From an uncultured Candidatus Saccharibacteria bacterium (GTDB lineage Bacteria > Patescibacteriota > Dojkabacteria > SC72), in NCBI GenBank assembly GCA_964560525.1, contig CAZLLO010000005.1, positions 1 to 58,705 of the forward strand: a DNA stretch of 58,705 bases, written 5' to 3'. Below, piece by piece: positions 1 to 10,127 of the stretch. Every line of letters begins with the position of its first letter. The stretch's first letter is position 1. The position numbers were made by a program, and so were the translations under genes. The notes under the pieces are model-generated. The model ran no database searches, had not been told where the DNA came from, and saw only the letters and a list, made by a program, of their open reading frames with translations.

Positions 1-1075
1 AATCTCTTCCATTAGCTCTATTTAATCCAATTTTTCCAACTATTCGATCAATATCATTAATATTCTCTAATTTACTTCTGATATCTGTTAAACAGTCTTG
101 CTTGTTGTATAGCTTTTCTACTATGTTTAATCTTTCGTCTATACTTTTCTTGTCTATGAGCGGATTTAAGATCCACGAGTAGAGTAATCTTCTTCCCATT
201 CGGGTAGAGGTTCGATCTAGTACTCCAAAGAGTGAGTCTGAGATATTTCCACTGTATGCACTTGCTACTAGTTCTAGGTTTCTAATGGTTGCTCTGTCTA
301 GGATCATGGTTCTGTCTGTATTTACTCGTTTTGGTTTGAGTATATGCTTTGGATCCATGAGTTGGGTTTCTTTGATGTATTGAAGTCCCATTCCTACTGC
401 TATGATATCTCCATTGTCTTGTGAGATATCCAAGCTTTCCATATTTTTAATATCGTAGAATTCTTTTACTATTTCTGTAGCATAGTCTTTGTTCTTTAAT
501 CCTTTTTCTACAAAGTGTACTGGGGTATTTGGAAAGAGTAGGGTATCCTCTCCTTCTATGACTAGTATTTCTTCTGGGTAATATGATGAAAGGATATTGC
601 TTACACTGTTCTCTGTATATTTCTCGGTTATGAGTAACGACTCTCCTGTTGATACATCACAGAGTGATACTGAGAGAGTTTTCTTTTCTAAGTAGAAGCT
701 TGCTAGGTAAGAGTTCTTTACTGCATTGGCTTCGTCTCCATCTAGGGTTCCGGGTGTTACTATTCTTGTTACTCCTCGTTTGACTATTCCTTTTGCAAAT
801 TTTGGGTCTTCTAATTGGTCTACTACTACTACACAGTAGCCTGCTGATATGAGTTTTGGTAAGTATTGGTCTATGGCTTTGTGTGGGAATCCTGCTAATG
901 GTACGTTGTTGTTTTCTTTGTTTCTAGCGGTTAGGGTTATGTTTAATACCTTTGATGTTAGTTTGGCATCGTCTCCAAAGGATTCGAAGAAATCTCCCAT
1001 TCTGTAGAGTAGTATTTTATCTGGGTATTGCTTCTTAAAACCCATATATTGTTTCATCATTGGTGTGTCTTCCAT
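1..1075 (-). CDS. mutS: DNA mismatch repair protein MutS, N-terminal part; runs off the left edge and is absent from the ORF track
   Basis: Manual translation from ATG at 1075: MEDTPMMKQYMGFKKQYPDKILLYRMGDFFESFGDDA...PLAGFPHKAIDQYLPKLISAGYCVVVVDQLEDP...VKRGVTRIVTPGT, the MutS domain I signature. Confidence 0.96.
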   Translation of the reverse strand, partial: MEDTPMMKQYMGFKKQYPDKILLYRMGDFFESFGDDAKLTSKVLNITLTARNKENNNVPLAGFPHKAIDQYLPKLISAGYCVVVVDQLEDPKFAKGIVKRGVTRIVTPGTLDGDEANAVKNSYLASFYLEKKTLSVSLCDVSTGESLLITEKYTENSVSNILSSYYPEEILVIEGEDTLLFPNTPVHFVEKGLKNKDYATEIVKEFYDIKNMESLDISQDNGDIIAVGMGLQYIKETQLMDPKHILKPKRVNTDRTMILDRATIRNLELVASAYSGNISDSLFGVLDRTSTRMGRRLLYSWILNPLIDKKSIDERLNIVEKLYNKQDCLTDIRSKLENINDIDRIVGKIGLNRANGRD

Positions 1076-1129
1076 GTACAGAAAGTATATCATAGAAACC
1101 TATAATGAGAGAAATAGGTATTGCTAAGA

Positions 1130-1237: not shown

Positions 1238-1687
1238 TTAAATAGTTTTGAATTTTTCTTTCACACAATCAACAAGTGCCAATGGAATCTCTTTTTCAAG
1301 AAGATTATCTAGAAAGCTTTTGGCTTCTTCACTTAGATTTTTTTGAGATCCATGTTTAGTAATCCTGCGAAGGATACTAAAAAACACCTTTGTTTCATCT
1401 GTTTCTTTCTCTTGTAATATTTGCATCATTATATTTTTTGCAAAAATCTCATTACAAGAGCCAGAAGAAGTTAAGCCCCAATAAACAAGGACTTCATCCT
1501 TGTCTAAGGTGCCGGAGTCTCTAACGACTCTTAACAATCCTTCTTTTTGGCGAGAATCGCCCAAATGTTCTACCATAGAGGCTAGCATTACAGCAAAAGC
1601 TCTTCTCATATACCACAACCTTTTTTTAATGATCCTTTTCCCGTGCATATTATAGGGTAAAATGGGGATTATTAAAAGAAGAAGCAT
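1238..1687 (-). CDS. Hypothetical protein; true start may be a downstream Met
   Basis: 149-aa ORF filling the gap between genes, no recognised motif. Confidence 0.55.
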   Translation of the reverse strand: MLLLLIIPILPYNMHGKRIIKKRLWYMRRAFAVMLASMVEHLGDSRQKEGLLRVVRDSGTLDKDEVLVYWGLTSSGSCNEIFAKNIMMQILQEKETDETKVFFSILRRITKHGSQKNLSEEAKSFLDNLLEKEIPLALVDCVKEKFKTI

Positions 1688-1711
1688 TTATCTAATAATT
1701 TGATAGAATAA

Positions 1712-2221
1712 ATGATGATTACATTATTCATACTAGTTGGTTTACCATTCTCGGGGAAATCAACATTGTTAAAATCCGTCTCAGAGCTTACTAATATCAA
1801 AACAATATCTTTTGATATTCTTTGGAAAGAATTAGAACAAAATCCGAATGAAAAAGATAAACTATCTTTTGAATATGTAACAGAAATTATAGATAAAAGG
1901 ATAGCCCAATTACTTAGAGAAGGGTACTCCGTTATGTATGATTCCTTAAATGATACTCCCGATCAAAGAGAAAGACTGTCTAACATTGCAAAGGATACAA
2001 ATGCTTCATCCTTAATCATCTACCTTGATACACCTTTAGAGATTGTAAGATCTAGGAGATTTGAAAATACAAAGAATTTGAAAAGACATCTGGTAGATGA
2101 TCAGAATTTTGATAAATCAATTAAGAAATTTGTTATTCCAACTGAGAACGTTTTGATGTTTAGATACGATGATGATATTACACTATGGATAAAAGAAAAC
2201 CTTAGTGAATATTTAAGATAG
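1712..2221 (+). CDS. P-loop kinase-like ATP-binding protein (AAA_33 type)
   Basis: Walker A GLPFSGKS, then VMYDSLN and IIYLDTPLEIVRSR typical of nucleotide-kinase-like folds. Confidence 0.75.
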   Translation: MMITLFILVGLPFSGKSTLLKSVSELTNIKTISFDILWKELEQNPNEKDKLSFEYVTEIIDKRIAQLLREGYSVMYDSLNDTPDQRERLSNIAKDTNASSLIIYLDTPLEIVRSRRFENTKNLKRHLVDDQNFDKSIKKFVIPTENVLMFRYDDDITLWIKENLSEYLR

Positions 2222-2222
2222 G

Positions 2223-4778
2223 TTATCTCCCCAATATCAACTTTGATTCTTCTTCAGATACAACCTTTCTAGCCTCTGCAATATCCTCAGCACAAACAGA
2301 AACACCATATATACCAGTTTGTACACAATGCCTTAATAATGGTTTACTATCCTCAACAATAGCTATAACTCGACTATCCTTAACCCTAGCAACATCCAAT
2401 ACATTATCTATAACCTTAAATACACTATTCCTACTCAAATCATACTTAGCATTCTCATCATTAACCTTAAACCCTTGCATCTGCTTAGCAATCCTAGGCA
2501 TATTCAAAATCAAACCATCCATCTTAGTATTGAGAATATCATCAGCAAGAATAATCTCTGATGGGTTATCCAAAATAGCATAAACCTTAAATGAAGAAGT
2601 ACGTCTCATGCCCTCTGCAGAAAGCTGCTTCTTAAATTCCTTCATCATATCCTCATTCATAGGGGAGTGTAGTGCAACAGAAACATTCCTCTTTTTATGC
2701 ACATTCCTAACTCTTTTAACGATCTTAATAACTCTTTTAAGTAACGGAAGATTGTTTACATAGTGAGTAGCACCATATATCTCACCAGAGAGAGTAGCAT
2801 CCTCAAATTCCTTACCTCTGGTTAAAGCTCTAAATTGATTAATAGTTGCAGAACCAATAGACACAACAACCTCATTTCCTTCGGCCAATTCAACATATCT
2901 CAAAATCTTCTCAGTGATTCTTGCAGTATAGTCTAAGAATTTCTTGTCCTCTACATATGCAAGTAGGTGCCTACCTTCGTTAATCATAATCTCATCCAAA
3001 TCAATATACACAATACCATTAGAATTACCTACATAATCAAAGAGCTTTGTAGGCTCAATATTACCCATACTAAATACCCTAGTAGCACATGGGGGTAGGG
3101 TAAAGTCCTTTTTAATCATCAAACCCGGAGCTTCAACTTCTTGCTCCGCTTGTATTTCTTGCTGTTGTTTTTCTTCTTTCAAAAGATTAACACCATCACC
3201 ATATGTTTCTACAACAGGATGCACTTCTTCTCTCTGATTCTGTTTTTGTTCTCTGTATATACTACCTGTATTACCATCTATTCTAACCCAATCACCATCC
3301 TTAAGTATTTCTGAAGCTTTTGAAGCACCAACTATAGCTGGGATTTTCATTTCTCTACACAATATTGCAGTATCGCTAGTAATACCACCAAAATCCATAA
3401 TGACACCACCACAAGACATAATCATGGATTCCATATCCGTGGAATATCGCTTAATCAAAAGAACATCTTCTTTGGTATATGTTTTACCTGTAGGATTATC
3501 AACGATTACAATATTACCAATACTAACGCCAAAACTTGCTCCAATACCTGAAACCAAAAGATCTTCTTTATTTACTTGATTACTCTCTTCAATCTTTTCT
3601 TTCTTTACTCTTGCCGCATTAATCAGGGTTTCTATTTTACTAGTTATGCTAGAGCTATTTTTCATAACCATCTTTTGAGCACCAGAAATTGCCTGATTAT
3701 TAATCATTTCCTGCATCTGATATTTACCCAAGAAAGCAAGAATTAAATCTCTCAATGTTTTCTGCGTTACTTCCATCTCAGAAATATGTACACGATTTGA
3801 AAGGACTTCAGAAATCAAAGGTTTGTTTTGTAATATCCAAACCCTACCACCAGAGAGTACCCATTCAATATTTTGTGGTAATCTAGATTTATTTTCTACA
3901 ATCAATGCTATCTTGGAAATCTCCTGTGTTTCCTTATCTCCCAATTTTGGCTTATGACTCCATCCAGCAGATATCTTTATCTTCTCATCATTGCTTCTTC
4001 TGCTATTTCCACTGTTCATATTTCTTACTTTCATCCATTCTTGAGGTGCAATATGTTTTTCAATGACACTTAGATCACGTTTGTTCAAAAGATATGAATC
4101 TGGAGTAACTTCACCAGTGGATATAACATCACCAAGACCATATACAGCTTCAATACCTAATCTTGTATTATCTTGAGTTATTGGATCAACGGTAAATACA
4201 ACACCAGATATTTCAGCCTGAACCATCTTTTGTACTACAATAGCAAGTTTGACTTCTGCCAAATCGATATCCATTTTAGAAGCATATGCAACAACATCAT
4301 CAGTAAAAAGGGATGCATATACTTTCTTAATAGCGCTTTTTAAATCCTCAAATTTTCTTACATTTAACTCCGTAGAAAAGATACCACTAAAGGAGACACT
4401 TTCATTCTCTGAAAAAACAACCGAAGATCTTACAGACACCCAAGCATCAGAGAAACCTGAGAGCCTAGTATATGCGCTTAAGATATCTTCTTGAACATCC
4501 TGGGCAAACTCTTGTCCTTGAAAAGCATAATATACTTCTTCTCCCTCTGGATTCCTTCCTTTATCTAGTAGCTTTTGTTTACTATTTTCTAATGATTTAG
4601 TACAAAAATCTGTATATACAGTACTAGATACAACAAAGAATTCAGGGACAGGAACATCCATCTCCTTAAGATGGAATAGGCTAAGTCCTTTTCTTCCAAC
4701 CTTGTTTTCATTTAATTCTTTAGATGAGAAATCTTCAAAAAAGAAAACATTATTCTTTTTCGTTATGGCATTTTCCAT
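2223..4778 (-). CDS. PEP synthase (PpsA)-like protein with degenerate catalytic motifs
   Basis: ATP-grasp motifs (VSVRSS, VVQKMV, GVVFTVDP, IEAVYGLGDVI, NIEW), swivel domain GGITSDTAILCREMKIPAIVG and a C-terminal barrel-sized region. Confidence 0.85.
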   Translation of the reverse strand: MENAITKKNNVFFFEDFSSKELNENKVGRKGLSLFHLKEMDVPVPEFFVVSSTVYTDFCTKSLENSKQKLLDKGRNPEGEEVYYAFQGQEFAQDVQEDILSAYTRLSGFSDAWVSVRSSVVFSENESVSFSGIFSTELNVRKFEDLKSAIKKVYASLFTDDVVAYASKMDIDLAEVKLAIVVQKMVQAEISGVVFTVDPITQDNTRLGIEAVYGLGDVISTGEVTPDSYLLNKRDLSVIEKHIAPQEWMKVRNMNSGNSRRSNDEKIKISAGWSHKPKLGDKETQEISKIALIVENKSRLPQNIEWVLSGGRVWILQNKPLISEVLSNRVHISEMEVTQKTLRDLILAFLGKYQMQEMINNQAISGAQKMVMKNSSSITSKIETLINAARVKKEKIEESNQVNKEDLLVSGIGASFGVSIGNIVIVDNPTGKTYTKEDVLLIKRYSTDMESMIMSCGGVIMDFGGITSDTAILCREMKIPAIVGASKASEILKDGDWVRIDGNTGSIYREQKQNQREEVHPVVETYGDGVNLLKEEKQQQEIQAEQEVEAPGLMIKKDFTLPPCATRVFSMGNIEPTKLFDYVGNSNGIVYIDLDEIMINEGRHLLAYVEDKKFLDYTARITEKILRYVELAEGNEVVVSIGSATINQFRALTRGKEFEDATLSGEIYGATHYVNNLPLLKRVIKIVKRVRNVHKKRNVSVALHSPMNEDMMKEFKKQLSAEGMRRTSSFKVYAILDNPSEIILADDILNTKMDGLILNMPRIAKQMQGFKVNDENAKYDLSRNSVFKVIDNVLDVARVKDSRVIAIVEDSKPLLRHCVQTGIYGVSVCAEDIAEARKVVSEEESKLILGR

Positions 4779-4812: not shown

Positions 4813-5976
4813 CTAAACAATACCTTTAGCTTTTAATTTTTGCAAGTCTATATAGAACTCATAGAATATCTGAAGTAATACCATGAATGGTACAGCTACC
4901 AAAGCTCCAAATACACCAAAAAGAATTAAGAATATGAAAACACCCAACATAATAACCACAGGTTTGAGACCAATCGCATTCCCCATGATCTTAGGGATTA
5001 TTAAATTGTTTTCAATCTGCTGATAGATTATAAAGACACCAATTAAGATAACAGCACCTAGTGGTCCAACTGTTAGAAGTGCTACCAATGCAGCAATTAA
5101 AGTAGCTATTGTAGCTCCAATACCAGGTACCGCATCTAAAATAGCAATCATAACAGCCAATGGCAATGCAAACGGTACGTTTAGTATAGTTAAGAGAATT
5201 CCTGCGAAGATACCCGTAATAGTACTAATAGTTGCCTGACCTAACATCCATCTTCCTAGTTTCCTTTCAACATCAATAACCAATTTCTTGACCCTATCTC
5301 TTTTCTCATCAGAAACTATTCTTATCAATCCGAAATCGAGTAGAGAGTCATGTTCTAAAACAAGATATATTGAGAGGATTAAAGATGAAACTAATAGTCC
5401 TGTTGTGCTAAAGACACTAGACACAGCACTTGTTACATTTTTGAGACTTTCTCCTGTTGTAATATTCTGCAAGCTATTGGATACGAAATTCGTTATATCT
5501 TGAGCATTAATACTTGTTGATCCGAATGTAAATCCATGGAAATTAGCAACTGTATTTTTTACCCACTCTGGGAATGCTTTAGCCAAATCTCCTACCTGTC
5601 CAGCTAATGGAACTATCACAATAGAAAGGAGGGAAAGGATAATTACAACAGCAACGATGTATGTTATGACAACAGCCCAACCCTTGTGAATACGCTTTGA
5701 CATTAACCAGGTTACAACAGGTCTTGCTGCAGATGTAAATACAAACCCAAAGAAAAGAAATAGTGCAACCGCAACTAGTTGGCTACCAAAGAATATGATA
5801 CCCAGAATTAGTAATACCAAAGCTAAAAGCTCCCATGAGAACTGAACAACTATAACAGGCTTTTCTTTTCCTATTTTCTCATTGTATTTTACTGCCTCTC
5901 GGAGATCTTCGAGACCTTTTTTTTGCTCTTCTTTTATCTGTTTATCCGTATCTCTAAATGAAAATATTTTTCCCAT
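4813..5976 (-). CDS. AI-2E (PerM/UPF0118) family transporter
   Basis: Multi-TM protein with LDAVPGIGA, QQIENNLIIPKIMG and GVFGALVAVP motifs. Confidence 0.9.
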   Translation of the reverse strand: MGKIFSFRDTDKQIKEEQKKGLEDLREAVKYNEKIGKEKPVIVVQFSWELLALVLLILGIIFFGSQLVAVALFLFFGFVFTSAARPVVTWLMSKRIHKGWAVVITYIVAVVIILSLLSIVIVPLAGQVGDLAKAFPEWVKNTVANFHGFTFGSTSINAQDITNFVSNSLQNITTGESLKNVTSAVSSVFSTTGLLVSSLILSIYLVLEHDSLLDFGLIRIVSDEKRDRVKKLVIDVERKLGRWMLGQATISTITGIFAGILLTILNVPFALPLAVMIAILDAVPGIGATIATLIAALVALLTVGPLGAVILIGVFIIYQQIENNLIIPKIMGNAIGLKPVVIMLGVFIFLILFGVFGALVAVPFMVLLQIFYEFYIDLQKLKAKGIV

Positions 5977-6021: not shown

Positions 6022-6046
6022 AAAAGAGGGGAGAGCTACTCCCCTC
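6022..6046 (-). terminator. Intrinsic terminator of the 6069..7010 gene
   Basis: GAGGGGAG (6026-6033) / CTCCCCTC (6039-6046) stem, followed on the minus strand by TTTTGTTT. Confidence 0.75.
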
Positions 6047-6068: not shown

Positions 6069-7010
6069 CTATTGTTTTCTTTGTTTAATATACATAACAG
6101 AGGTAGTGGTTATACCACCAACTAATGCAAGTATTGCAAAGAACCATACTAACTTATTACCTGCTAAGAAATCAGCAACATTATCTAGATCACCATCTGC
6201 AACAGGTATAGATGCATCATCCACAGCATCACCATTAACACTGCTTTCAGGAGAGTATATTACCTTTATTCTTCCTACCAATGCAGTTTCATTGCCTGCG
6301 GTATCCTTTATAACTACATTAAAAACGTTCGAGCCACTATCTAAAGCAATACTTACAATCTTAAAATATCCCTTTTCGTTACATGTAGCACTGTAATAAT
6401 CCGTGCCTCTTTTAACTGTAACTTGAGCATCTTTTTCTGCAGTACCAGTTACTGTAAATGTCTGAGTTCCAACCTCTGTTGGGAATTTAACATCTGCAAG
6501 CACAGGAGCTGTCCTATCCACTACAACTGTTTGAATAGCAGATTGAGAAGAAAGATGTCTCATAGGGAAGCCTTTAACACTTGCAACTGCTATCTTGTAT
6601 TCACCTTCCTGACTAAGTGCAACATTGTAAAGATATTCACCCTTGTTATTAACTTTTACAGAACCTATCTTTTCATCATTGAGATATACAAGCACAGTAT
6701 CATAACCTTTGGCATTACCAGCAACAGATACATTTTCTCCATTAGTGATAGAAGGAATTTCCTCAAAAGAAGGGGACACTAAAGAAGTATCCAATTTGGG
6801 ATTACTGTTGTATTTCACAAAAGAATAAATACCAAAACCTACAAGTAACAATCCCAAAACAATAAAAATAGAGCCAACTAATTTAGAAACTCTCTCAGGA
6901 TCTTGAGGTTTTTTTACATCAACCTTAGAAGTCATTGTTTCTTCTTTTTTTAATTTGATCTCTTTTTTCGTAACTTTGGGAGCAGTATTTACAGATTTAG
7001 ATTTTTTCAT
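6069..7010 (-). CDS. Surface protein with Ig-like domains and a C-terminal sorting-signal-like tail
   Basis: N-terminal basic region and TM; Ig-like repeats (VSVAGNAKG, VDRTAP, NVFNVVIKDTAGN); C-terminal IPVADG, hydrophobic helix and KQRKQ; divergent from a sortase gene. Confidence 0.7.
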   Translation of the reverse strand: MKKSKSVNTAPKVTKKEIKLKKEETMTSKVDVKKPQDPERVSKLVGSIFIVLGLLLVGFGIYSFVKYNSNPKLDTSLVSPSFEEIPSITNGENVSVAGNAKGYDTVLVYLNDEKIGSVKVNNKGEYLYNVALSQEGEYKIAVASVKGFPMRHLSSQSAIQTVVVDRTAPVLADVKFPTEVGTQTFTVTGTAEKDAQVTVKRGTDYYSATCNEKGYFKIVSIALDSGSNVFNVVIKDTAGNETALVGRIKVIYSPESSVNGDAVDDASIPVADGDLDNVADFLAGNKLVWFFAILALVGGITTTSVMYIKQRKQ

Positions 7011-7109
7011 CCCCGCTAAACCTATATTAAAATTTATATAGTTCTACATAAAGGATAATATAATAACGAAATTAATGCAACTATGGTCAAAAACTAGTAA
7101 AATATACAT

Positions 7110-7799
7110 ATGCGAAAAAGCAAACTACTAAAAGTCGGGGTAACCGTCTTCATAATACTATTACTTCTAACTTTGTTAGCTTTCTTGTTCATATACCCAG
7201 CATACAACAAGATTTCAATAATCTTTAATGATTTAAATCCATACAGAGTTTCTAAGAATGTATATATGTCGGTTTTAACTAGGGTCTCACCTTCTCTTGA
7301 TACTTTCGAATCACAAGCCCTTTCAGAAAAATCCATAGAGGATTACCTAGATGCAGAAAATCAAATAGGACAAACAGTATTAGAAGATCAGAATACAAAA
7401 TTGCAAATAGACTCGGTAAATATTCTCGGAAGAATATCTGAGGGAGGAGATTCTAAGGCTATGCTAAAAGGTTTCTGGCATTTCCCAACTTCTTCATATC
7501 CAGGAGAGCAAGGCAATGTCGTAATTGTCGGCCATAGATTTCAATATCTTCCACCTGCAAAAAATACATTCTTTTATCTTGATCGTGTGCAGATAGGGGA
7601 TAGTATCAAAGTATTTGGGGATTCAGGCGAATATACCTACATAGTAACCAATATTAGAGTCACAGAACCTAATGATATCTCTGTACTAAAGAAAACAGAT
7701 GACTACAGATTAACGGTAATAACTTGCACTCCATTGTGGACTTCACACCAAAGGCTTGTTATAACAGCTAAACTAGACAAATTATACAAAAAAGTGTAG
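7110..7799 (+). CDS. Sortase
   Basis: N-terminal TM anchor; catalytic His (VIVGHR), Cys (LTVITC) and Arg (HQRLVI). Confidence 0.9.
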   Translation: MRKSKLLKVGVTVFIILLLLTLLAFLFIYPAYNKISIIFNDLNPYRVSKNVYMSVLTRVSPSLDTFESQALSEKSIEDYLDAENQIGQTVLEDQNTKLQIDSVNILGRISEGGDSKAMLKGFWHFPTSSYPGEQGNVVIVGHRFQYLPPAKNTFFYLDRVQIGDSIKVFGDSGEYTYIVTNIRVTEPNDISVLKKTDDYRLTVITCTPLWTSHQRLVITAKLDKLYKKV

Positions 7800-9991: not shown

Positions 9992-10049
9992 TTAGATTGA
10001 AAAATCACTTAATACAAGATAGAATACACACTGTTGTTTAATAATACAT

Positions 10050-10123
10050 GGACGATTAGCTCAGCTGGTTAGAGCATCACATTGACATTGTGGAGGTCAC
10101 AGGTTCGAGCCCTGTATCGTCCA
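10050..10123 (+). tRNA. tRNA-Val(GAC); CCA not encoded
   Basis: Acceptor stem GGACGAT/ATCGTCC, D-arm AGCTCAGCTGGTTAGAGC, anticodon loop TTGACAT, T-arm GGTTCGAGCC. Confidence 0.97.
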
Positions 10124-10127
10124 GTTG

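Follow-up and report, generated by a model that had tools for sequence, protein, structure and literature searches.

Phosphoenolpyruvate synthase (PpsA; pyruvate, water dikinase), pyruvate, phosphate dikinase (PPDK) and Enzyme I are the textbook phospho-histidine swivel enzymes. There are precedents for putting the pairing of an ATP-grasp domain with a swivel domain to new use, with another third domain or another substrate, in PpsA-like enzymes whose phosphorylation targets differ, namely rifampin phosphotransferase (RPH) and the phenylphosphate synthase/HpeI-type and PigC/RedH-type proteins, and the phenylphosphate synthase, HpeI-type and PigC/RedH-type relatives likewise keep the phospho-His. 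RPH also keeps this residue, and its Lys22, Arg117 and Thr136 position the alpha-beta phosphodiester of ATP for attack by the His (PMC4844700); the clade that we describe here does not keep it. We analysed a stretch of 58,705 nucleotides (the window) comprising positions 1 to 58,705 of the forward strand of contig CAZLLO010000005.1, from GenBank assembly GCA_964560525.1, titled uncultured Candidatus Saccharibacteria bacterium and placed by GTDB in Bacteria; Patescibacteriota; Dojkabacteria; SC72. The window encodes a PpsA-like protein with Asp at the position of the phospho-His, which we refer to as the Asp-swivel protein. Sequence comparisons place it in a deep clade within the PpsA/PPDK superfamily; this clade carries the Asp and is confined to Dojkabacteria (WS6) as far as named records show. 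The gene and its parts are as follows.

2223..4778, minus strand: PpsA-like Asp-swivel protein (P0001), complete open reading frame (ORF) with an ATG start, 851 amino acids plus stop codon
3807..4706, minus strand: ATP-grasp (PPDK_N) domain, residues 25-324 (Pfam, 6.8e-63)
3564..3806, minus strand: helical linker 1, residues 325-405 (DSSP helices 342-372 and 380-397 in the AlphaFold2 model)
3243..3563, minus strand: swivel (PEP-utilizers mobile) domain, residues 406-512 (Pfam, 9.8e-18, match 436-505; alignments)
3099..3242, minus strand: low-complexity linker 2, residues 513-560, the least constrained part of the protein
2226..3098, minus strand: C-terminal TIM barrel, residues 561-851, homologue of the phosphoenolpyruvate (PEP)-binding domain (alignments, Foldseek)
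3372..3374, minus strand: codon GAT for Asp469, at the position of the phospho-carrier His (phmmer alignments, orthologues)
3822..3824, minus strand: codon of K319 (in QNKP), which replaces the Arg of QxR (residue profiles across the clade)

The intact frame of 851 codons at these coordinates is as given in a preliminary description of this DNA, which omitted only that the gene lies on the minus strand. The PPDK_N and PEP-utilizers matches of the protein both exceed the Pfam gathering thresholds, indicating homology to the PPDK superfamily. A match to PEP-utilizers_C at residues 709-843 scores 16.2 bits, under the Pfam cut-off of 22.8, and the NCBIfam PEP synthase equivalogs score 307 bits against a cut-off of 598 (NF005057) and 288 bits against a cut-off of 739.75 (TIGR01418). 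The AlphaFold2 model has a mean predicted local distance difference test score of 75.5, with values of ~90 in the barrel, ~83 in the swivel and 80-90 in most of the ATP-grasp domain. The top Foldseek matches of this model are PpsA (2ols), PPDK (probability 1.00) and RPH, and its barrel aligns to those of the archaeal PpsA structures 9dae and 8a8e with template modelling scores of 0.80-0.81. The order of domains found in PpsA and PPDK, namely ATP-grasp, swivel and TIM barrel, is thus present both by Pfam and by comparison of the model with 2ols, 8a8e and 9dae.

The best sequence matches are to the archaeal multimeric PpsA enzymes (EC 2.7.9.2) from P. furiosus (8a8e, 3.5e-59) and S. marinus (9dae, 9.9e-47). 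The Asp-swivel protein shares with these enzymes the domain order, K30, R117, E305, Q317, G464-G465, R475-E476 and the C-terminal helix. By contrast, it has Asp469 in place of His and QxK in place of QxR, has lost the ligands of PEP, pyruvate and Mg, and falls below the equivalog cut-offs. The C-terminal helix is the oligomerisation helix of archaeal PpsA, conserved here at E844 and L849 (residues 844-849, window 2226-2240). The 24-mer of P. furiosus PpsA has an Fe-coordinating Met799 (bioRxiv 10.1101/2022.08.11.503304). This residue aligns to Ile848, which is invariant among the Asp orthologues, suggesting that any oligomer would not use the Fe bridge. PPDK belongs to the same superfamily and has the same swivel mechanism, with only remote similarity in sequence; unlike in PPDK, every site that defines PPDK chemistry is changed, except for the nucleotide site. 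We also observed NCBIfam and PDB matches to PigC (5.7e-66), RPH (1.6e-51) and 9goj (7.6e-28). Unlike in the RPH-type relatives, however, the third domain of the Asp-swivel clade is still a PpsA-type barrel and not a new substrate domain.

The swivel motif, GGITSDTAILCRE, begins at residue 464. In phmmer alignments to 8a8e and 9dae, 'dfGGiTSDtAIlcRE' lies over 'deGGrTSHaAIvsRE', such that D469 is exactly opposite the catalytic phospho-His of these solved PEP synthases, as the preliminary description had proposed. The same alignments confirm, at each residue, the other altered motifs that it listed: QNKP in place of QARP, at residues 317-320, where the PpsA counterpart is Q[AS]RP; GIVYIDLDEI at residues 588-597, opposite GVGLLRAEHM; LNMPR at residues 758-762, opposite FGTND; and loss of the Cys of the ICG motif, which is opposite I805.

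We compared the residues of the ATP site and of the PEP site across the Asp clade. Relative to the PPDK set of K22, R92, E323, Q335 and R337, the ATP-grasp domain keeps K30, R117, E305 and Q317, and has K319 in place of R337. K30 and R117 were each present in 53/53 non-gap Asp-clade rows, T136 was present in 47/53 with Ser in 5 more, and the Mg ligands E305 and Q317 were each present in 54/55 rows. K30, R117 and T136 are the counterparts of Lys22, Arg117 and Thr136 of RPH. The phosphate-cradle motif, G464-G465-x-[TN]-S-D...R475-E476, is kept as in the His enzymes. Based on these residues, nucleotide binding at the ATP-grasp site looks likely, and canonical chemistry is uncertain. In the QxR motif, Lys takes the place of Arg (PPDK R337) in 50/55 Asp-clade rows, and Arg is present in 16/20 His-bearing rows; Asp together with QxK was found in 47 rows and His together with QxR in 12, indicating that the change from QxR to QxK accompanies that from His to Asp. 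The residue following site 469 is L, V, I or T in the Asp clade and is Ala in 100% of the His enzymes, and the GxKG of the His enzymes has become GRKG. We had also considered the block at residues 240-278 (EK.I.PQEWM...W..QK), which is near-invariant, as specific to the Asp clade; this candidate was dropped because the His-bearing protein P0149 has the block too.

In the barrel, PPDK residues R561, R617, D620, E745, N768, D769 and the catalytic Cys correspond to D593, S640, S643, D737, P761, R762 and I805, respectively. Clade-wide, the counterparts of R561, R617, D620, N768, D769 and the Arg of LGxRG have been lost, and that of E745 is Asp or Glu only within family f1, being variable elsewhere in the Asp clade; all of these residues are conserved in the His set. 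Since all of the PEP, pyruvate and Mg ligands of the barrel are lost, we conclude from the alignments that the 851-aa protein is not a PEP synthase. In place of these ligands, the C-terminal ends of the barrel strands bear acidic residues with partial conservation (D593, D/E595, E741 and N/D759), and the positions of the C-terminal domain that are conserved at the level of the order are mostly those common to canonical PpsA.

We next consider the extent of the Asp substitution and the selection acting on it. A protein search returned 773 matches; among the matches listed, all 119 orthologues besides the query carry Asp (53-81% identity, 734-874 aa), and several of these are named Candidatus Dojkabacteria. 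A second, more distant query yielded Asp in 82 of 83 matches. D469, T467, S468, R475 and E476 are invariant in 54/54 aligned orthologues. Among 39 genomic orthologues, the codon at site 469 is GAT in 31, GAC in six, GAA in one and GCA in one; both Asp codons are in use, indicating that the amino acid has been maintained through synonymous change. Nei-Gojobori estimates of the ratio of non-synonymous to synonymous substitution rates (dN/dS) across the eight closest pairs fall within 0.03-0.09 for each of the ATP-grasp, swivel and C-terminal domains, and only the linker spanning residues 513-560 is looser, at 0.1-0.45. The synonymous rate is near saturation in most of these pairs, and the cleanest estimate, from a pair with 98% identity, is 0.037. 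The preliminary description had called the protein retained, and suggested that this be judged by whether orthologues conserve the Asp with dN/dS below 1 or instead keep His. Both the conservation and the low dN/dS were found, none of the 119 listed orthologues keeps His, and the Asp is fixed across a deep clade; retention is therefore strongly supported.

Searching 1.84 billion cluster representatives exhaustively, we found that the best 150 included ~50 separate clusters, at 50% identity, in which the site is Asp. In a maximum-likelihood tree that we inferred from 102 single-swivel homologues, a single clade of 56 rows unites the Asp-bearing proteins (D in 52, A in two, E in one and N in one; Shimodaira-Hasegawa-like approximate likelihood ratio test support of 96), and the remainder of the tree consists of His-bearing PpsA proteins together with scattered His-less offshoots. 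Over 30.8 substitutions per site of branch length within the Asp clade, site 469 has undergone 3 changes by parsimony, the median for a column being 21. Only nine swivel columns have three or fewer changes, site 469 among them, compared to 54 columns in the ATP-grasp domain and four in the barrel. These counts suggest that selection is heaviest on the ATP-grasp and swivel domains, and that the barrel is more scaffold-like. Separately, we observed giant PpsA-like proteins of 1100-2650 aa (P0174, P0175, P0180, P0186, P0187, P0197 and others) with one ATP-grasp domain and 2-6 tandem swivels, all of which have His (e.g. GGITCHAAIVARE); P0197 has six.

A full-length orthologue is present in 45 of the 46 genomes of the same GTDB family, which are ~0.7 Mb in size, and other families of the order have homologues with 33-49% identity. 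Among 80 loci that each represent a species, with records titled Candidatus Dojkabacteria or candidate division WS6, Asp was found in 77 and Glu in one. Overall, >250 independent sequences from different assemblies share the Asp. For 15 loci with PpsA homologues from other Patescibacteria classes, 13 read GG[RMA]T[SC]HAAIVSR. The title 'uncultured Candidatus Saccharibacteria bacterium' is given to many of the species-representative metagenome-assembled genomes that contain the Dojkabacteria-type gene and operon, and is probably generic or wrong.

Two sets of relatives that lack both the His and the Asp bear on how the Asp is to be read.

L040-L043 and L048 (genomes G246, G229, G228, G204 and G212; families f101 and f102 of the same class): Tyr/Arg PpsA homologues, in a different gene neighbourhood
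L034:3143-5776, minus strand, with P0273 and P0137: Ala lineage within the Asp clade, motif GGLSSALAILCRE

The f101 and f102 homologues have Tyr, Arg or Lys at the site, within a degraded motif (e.g. GDINSYETEIARE). The Gln and Arg of QxR are lost too (KxT, KxD), and a good PEP-utilizers_C match, at 4.7e-30, is still present. Judged by their sequences, these forms look like ordinary degeneration of the ATP half. By contrast, the Asp clade shows the reciprocal pattern, in that the PEP half has been erased from proteins that retain an intact ATP half and phosphate cradle, and this contrast is the main reason for leaning to a functional Asp. In the other half of the tree, His-less lineages have Y, R, K, S, F, P, Q or D at the site. 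Across the His-less lineages with Y, R, K, S, F or I, the motif is degraded and the Gln and Arg of QxR are lost.

We favour the interpretation that the Asp-swivel protein has been neofunctionalised, depends on ATP and has a functional Asp in its swivel, possibly in the form of an acyl-phosphate, and we put the probability of this at roughly 45%. The ATP-grasp site would continue to bind and cleave ATP, and the carboxylate of Asp469 would be functionally required once the swivel docks there. The most likely role for Asp469 would be as the acceptor of a labile acyl phosphate, with roles as a catalytic base or a metal ligand being less likely. Formation of acyl phosphates from carboxylates is the general, ancestral chemistry of ATP-grasp proteins; here, its site would be a mobile domain of a protein. 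Once loaded or switched, the swivel would act on a further target, and the C-terminal barrel, with its new acidic pocket, would chiefly be a domain for scaffolding or docking. The proposed surroundings of the acyl phosphate are the Mg ligands E305 and Q317, the Ser/Thr residues S468 and T467, and the Lys residues K319 and K30. Any likeness to phospho-Asp carriers such as receiver domains, HAD phosphatases and P-type ATPases would lie only in this chemistry; we found no Pfam or NCBIfam match to these families and no relationship to them in sequence or fold, such that the similarity would be convergent. Several observations weigh against a functional Asp. In the Ala lineage, L034/P0273 and P0137 are 56% identical, the ORF is intact and the motif is otherwise unchanged, and P0274, the sister of this lineage, carries Asp; at least here, the sequences indicate that the protein persists without the carboxylate. 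There are also a single Asn and a single Glu variant within the Asp clade, and the equivalent of PPDK D321 is relaxed to D, N, I or V. The scarcity of slowly changing columns in the C-terminal domain (four, against 54 in the ATP-grasp domain) is coupled with loss of the canonical acceptor site, and we found no universally conserved new active site in this domain across the Asp clade. Because the side chain of Asp is shorter than that of His, reaching the beta-phosphate of ATP would need a changed docking geometry. Lastly, an independent-pairs test for phylogenetically independent covariation of D469 and K319 had no power, because the association of Asp with Lys is one ancestral event; independent His-to-Asp lineages outside the clade are mixed, with Lys in P0237 and Arg in P0236 and P0178.

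Some of these observations fit a different explanation, the main alternative, which we consider possible but somewhat less likely: that the protein is a non-catalytic pseudoenzyme, acting as a nucleotide sensor or an oligomeric scaffold, with Asp469 being structural or a permanent mimic of phospho-His that locks the swivel, and with no phosphate transfer. The catalytic nucleophile and the whole acceptor site have been lost in a gene under purifying selection, the Ala-bearing lineage survives intact, the D321 equivalent is relaxed, and intact His-less homologues arise repeatedly in the superfamily (Y, R, K, S, F, P, Q and D). Moreover, the conserved positions of the C-terminal domain being mostly those of canonical PpsA suggests roles in the fold or oligomer rather than in a new active site. 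However, the other His-less lineages are variable and degraded, whereas the Asp clade keeps its Asp, the GG...S-D...RE cradle and the residues that position the ATP polyphosphate. Such specific conservation over ~31 substitutions per site exceeds what a passive filler would need, and the ATP-positioning residues and the Asp together argue that the protein may not be dead. The preliminary description had offered a choice between a pseudoenzyme and a phospho-Asp carrier. Sequence cannot settle this choice: the strict Asp, the cradle and the ATP residues favour a functional Asp, and the Ala lineage and the erased acceptor site favour a pseudoenzyme. Classical ATP-grasp ligases activate carboxylates as acyl phosphates, and PPDK_N has the ATP-grasp fold, consistent with a ligase-type or self-modifying protein in which an acyl phosphate or adenylate on Asp469 is attacked by an amine or thiol of a small molecule or protein; the acidic barrel pocket (D593, D/E595, E741, N/D759) would suit a cationic or amine ligand. 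We regard this as improbable, since no homology to the substrate-binding regions of ligases was found, stoichiometric self-modification is unlikely for a conserved protein of 851 aa, and the conserved gene neighbourhood (see below) has no partner gene for such chemistry. The overall architecture, the best PDB matches being PpsA, and the label of 'pyruvate, water dikinase' given to orthologues by JGI would all be consistent with a genuine PEP synthase that works through phospho-Asp. Clade-wide replacement of the barrel ligands and of the Arg of LGxRG, I805 in place of the ICG Cys of archaeal PpsA, a PEP-utilizers_C score below the Pfam cut-off and scores for the PpsA equivalogs that are far short of theirs (307 of 598 and 288 of 739.75 bits) make this very improbable. 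An error of sequencing or assembly, or a recently decayed gene, could explain the odd residue only, with His (CAT) to Asp (GAT) being a change of one base; this explanation has a negligible chance of being correct, being already refuted by the >250 sequences with Asp, the use of both Asp codons and the low dN/dS (~0.04-0.07).

We also determined the context of the Asp-swivel gene, for which the neighbouring features in the window are as follows.

4813..5976, minus strand: AI-2E family transporter gene (Pfam, 2.5e-56), 34 nt upstream of the Asp-swivel gene
6026..6046, minus strand: strong terminator-like hairpin upstream of the AI-2E gene, with an 8-bp stem, 6 GC pairs and a T-run
2..1093, minus strand: MutS, N-terminal part, running off the window (Pfam MutS_I, MutS_II and MutS_III)
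1238..2221, mixed strands: genus-specific insert before MutS, encoding a 149-aa hypothetical protein (minus) and a 169-aa AAA_33/KTI12-like P-loop protein (plus)

The hairpin at 6026..6046 probably marks the boundary of a transcription unit. We found no terminator-like site between the AI-2E gene and the Asp-swivel gene, and from this arrangement the Asp-swivel gene is probably co-transcribed with the AI-2E permease, a candidate partner. Among the 80 species loci, the AI-2E permease gene is directly upstream and co-directional in 73 of 77, and MutS is directly downstream in 58 of 75. The median gaps within the co-directional trio of AI-2E, Asp-swivel and MutS genes are 32 and 41.5 nt. The trio reaches the order-level families and one class-level family (L047), and is absent around the 15 PpsA-homologue loci of other Patescibacteria, 13 of which have the canonical His motif. 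The two-gene insert between the Asp-swivel gene and MutS is found only in the window's genus; its P-loop gene is convergent with the Asp-swivel gene and ends 1 nt from the stop codon of the latter. PADLOC defence-system models yielded no match for the Asp-swivel protein or the permease. Upstream of the permease, at 6069-7799, are genes for a 313-aa membrane-anchored protein with bacterial Ig-like domains and for a divergently oriented sortase, a pair that is conserved with the locus within the order. A tRNA-Val(GAC) at 10049-10124 is the only stretch that the window shares with L095, an otherwise unrelated locus (L095:5-79; 95% over 75 nt).

There is a bolder version of the functional-Asp interpretation, which we consider unlikely on the present comparisons: the protein would be a swivelling dikinase-type machine with phosphate on aspartate, the first of its sort, in which the ATP-grasp domain loads Asp469 with K319 standing in for Arg, and in which the phospho-Asp is a phosphodonor or a timed switch that acts at the acidic pocket or on the AI-2E permease. 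If this were true, the phospho-Asp swivel and the permease would parallel, with ATP as the driver, the coupling of Enzyme I to the transporters of the phosphotransferase system.

We searched the genome for other genes related to PEP. A second, canonical ppsA, proposed as a check by the preliminary description, was not found; the genome instead has one canonical PPDK.

G000:C6:16304-18943: canonical PPDK (L001), 880 aa, with motifs GGMTSHAAVVARG, GTNDLTQ and ICGEHGG

PPDK is patchily distributed, suggesting gain by transfer or repeated loss: just 4 of 51 family genomes encode it, and the other four genomes of this genus all lack it. We rejected PPDK as an explanation in terms of relaxed selection on PpsA, since its presence in so few family genomes means that it does not explain retention of the Asp-swivel gene. 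Pyruvate kinase is present in the genome, and we found no PSRP/DUF299 regulator there.

Full-text literature searches on PpsA, PPDK or Enzyme I variants with Asp, on PEP synthase of the candidate phyla radiation (CPR) and on the Dojkabacteria protein returned nothing relevant. With the Asp fixed, the ATP site kept, the PEP site erased and the gene present in ~98% of the ~0.7-Mb genomes of the family, an important function is implied for the Asp-swivel clade, one without description in the literature searched. Based on the sequence comparisons, the protein probably does a different ATP-dependent job from that of the enzyme named in databases. The mis-annotation as 'pyruvate, water dikinase' is widespread and feeds false calls of gluconeogenesis into metabolic reconstructions of the CPR, and should be corrected. 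The clade-specific linkage to the AI-2E permease and MutS names concrete candidate partners, and the Asp variant is an experiment of nature that bears on whether a swivel domain can work with an acyl phosphate instead of phospho-His.

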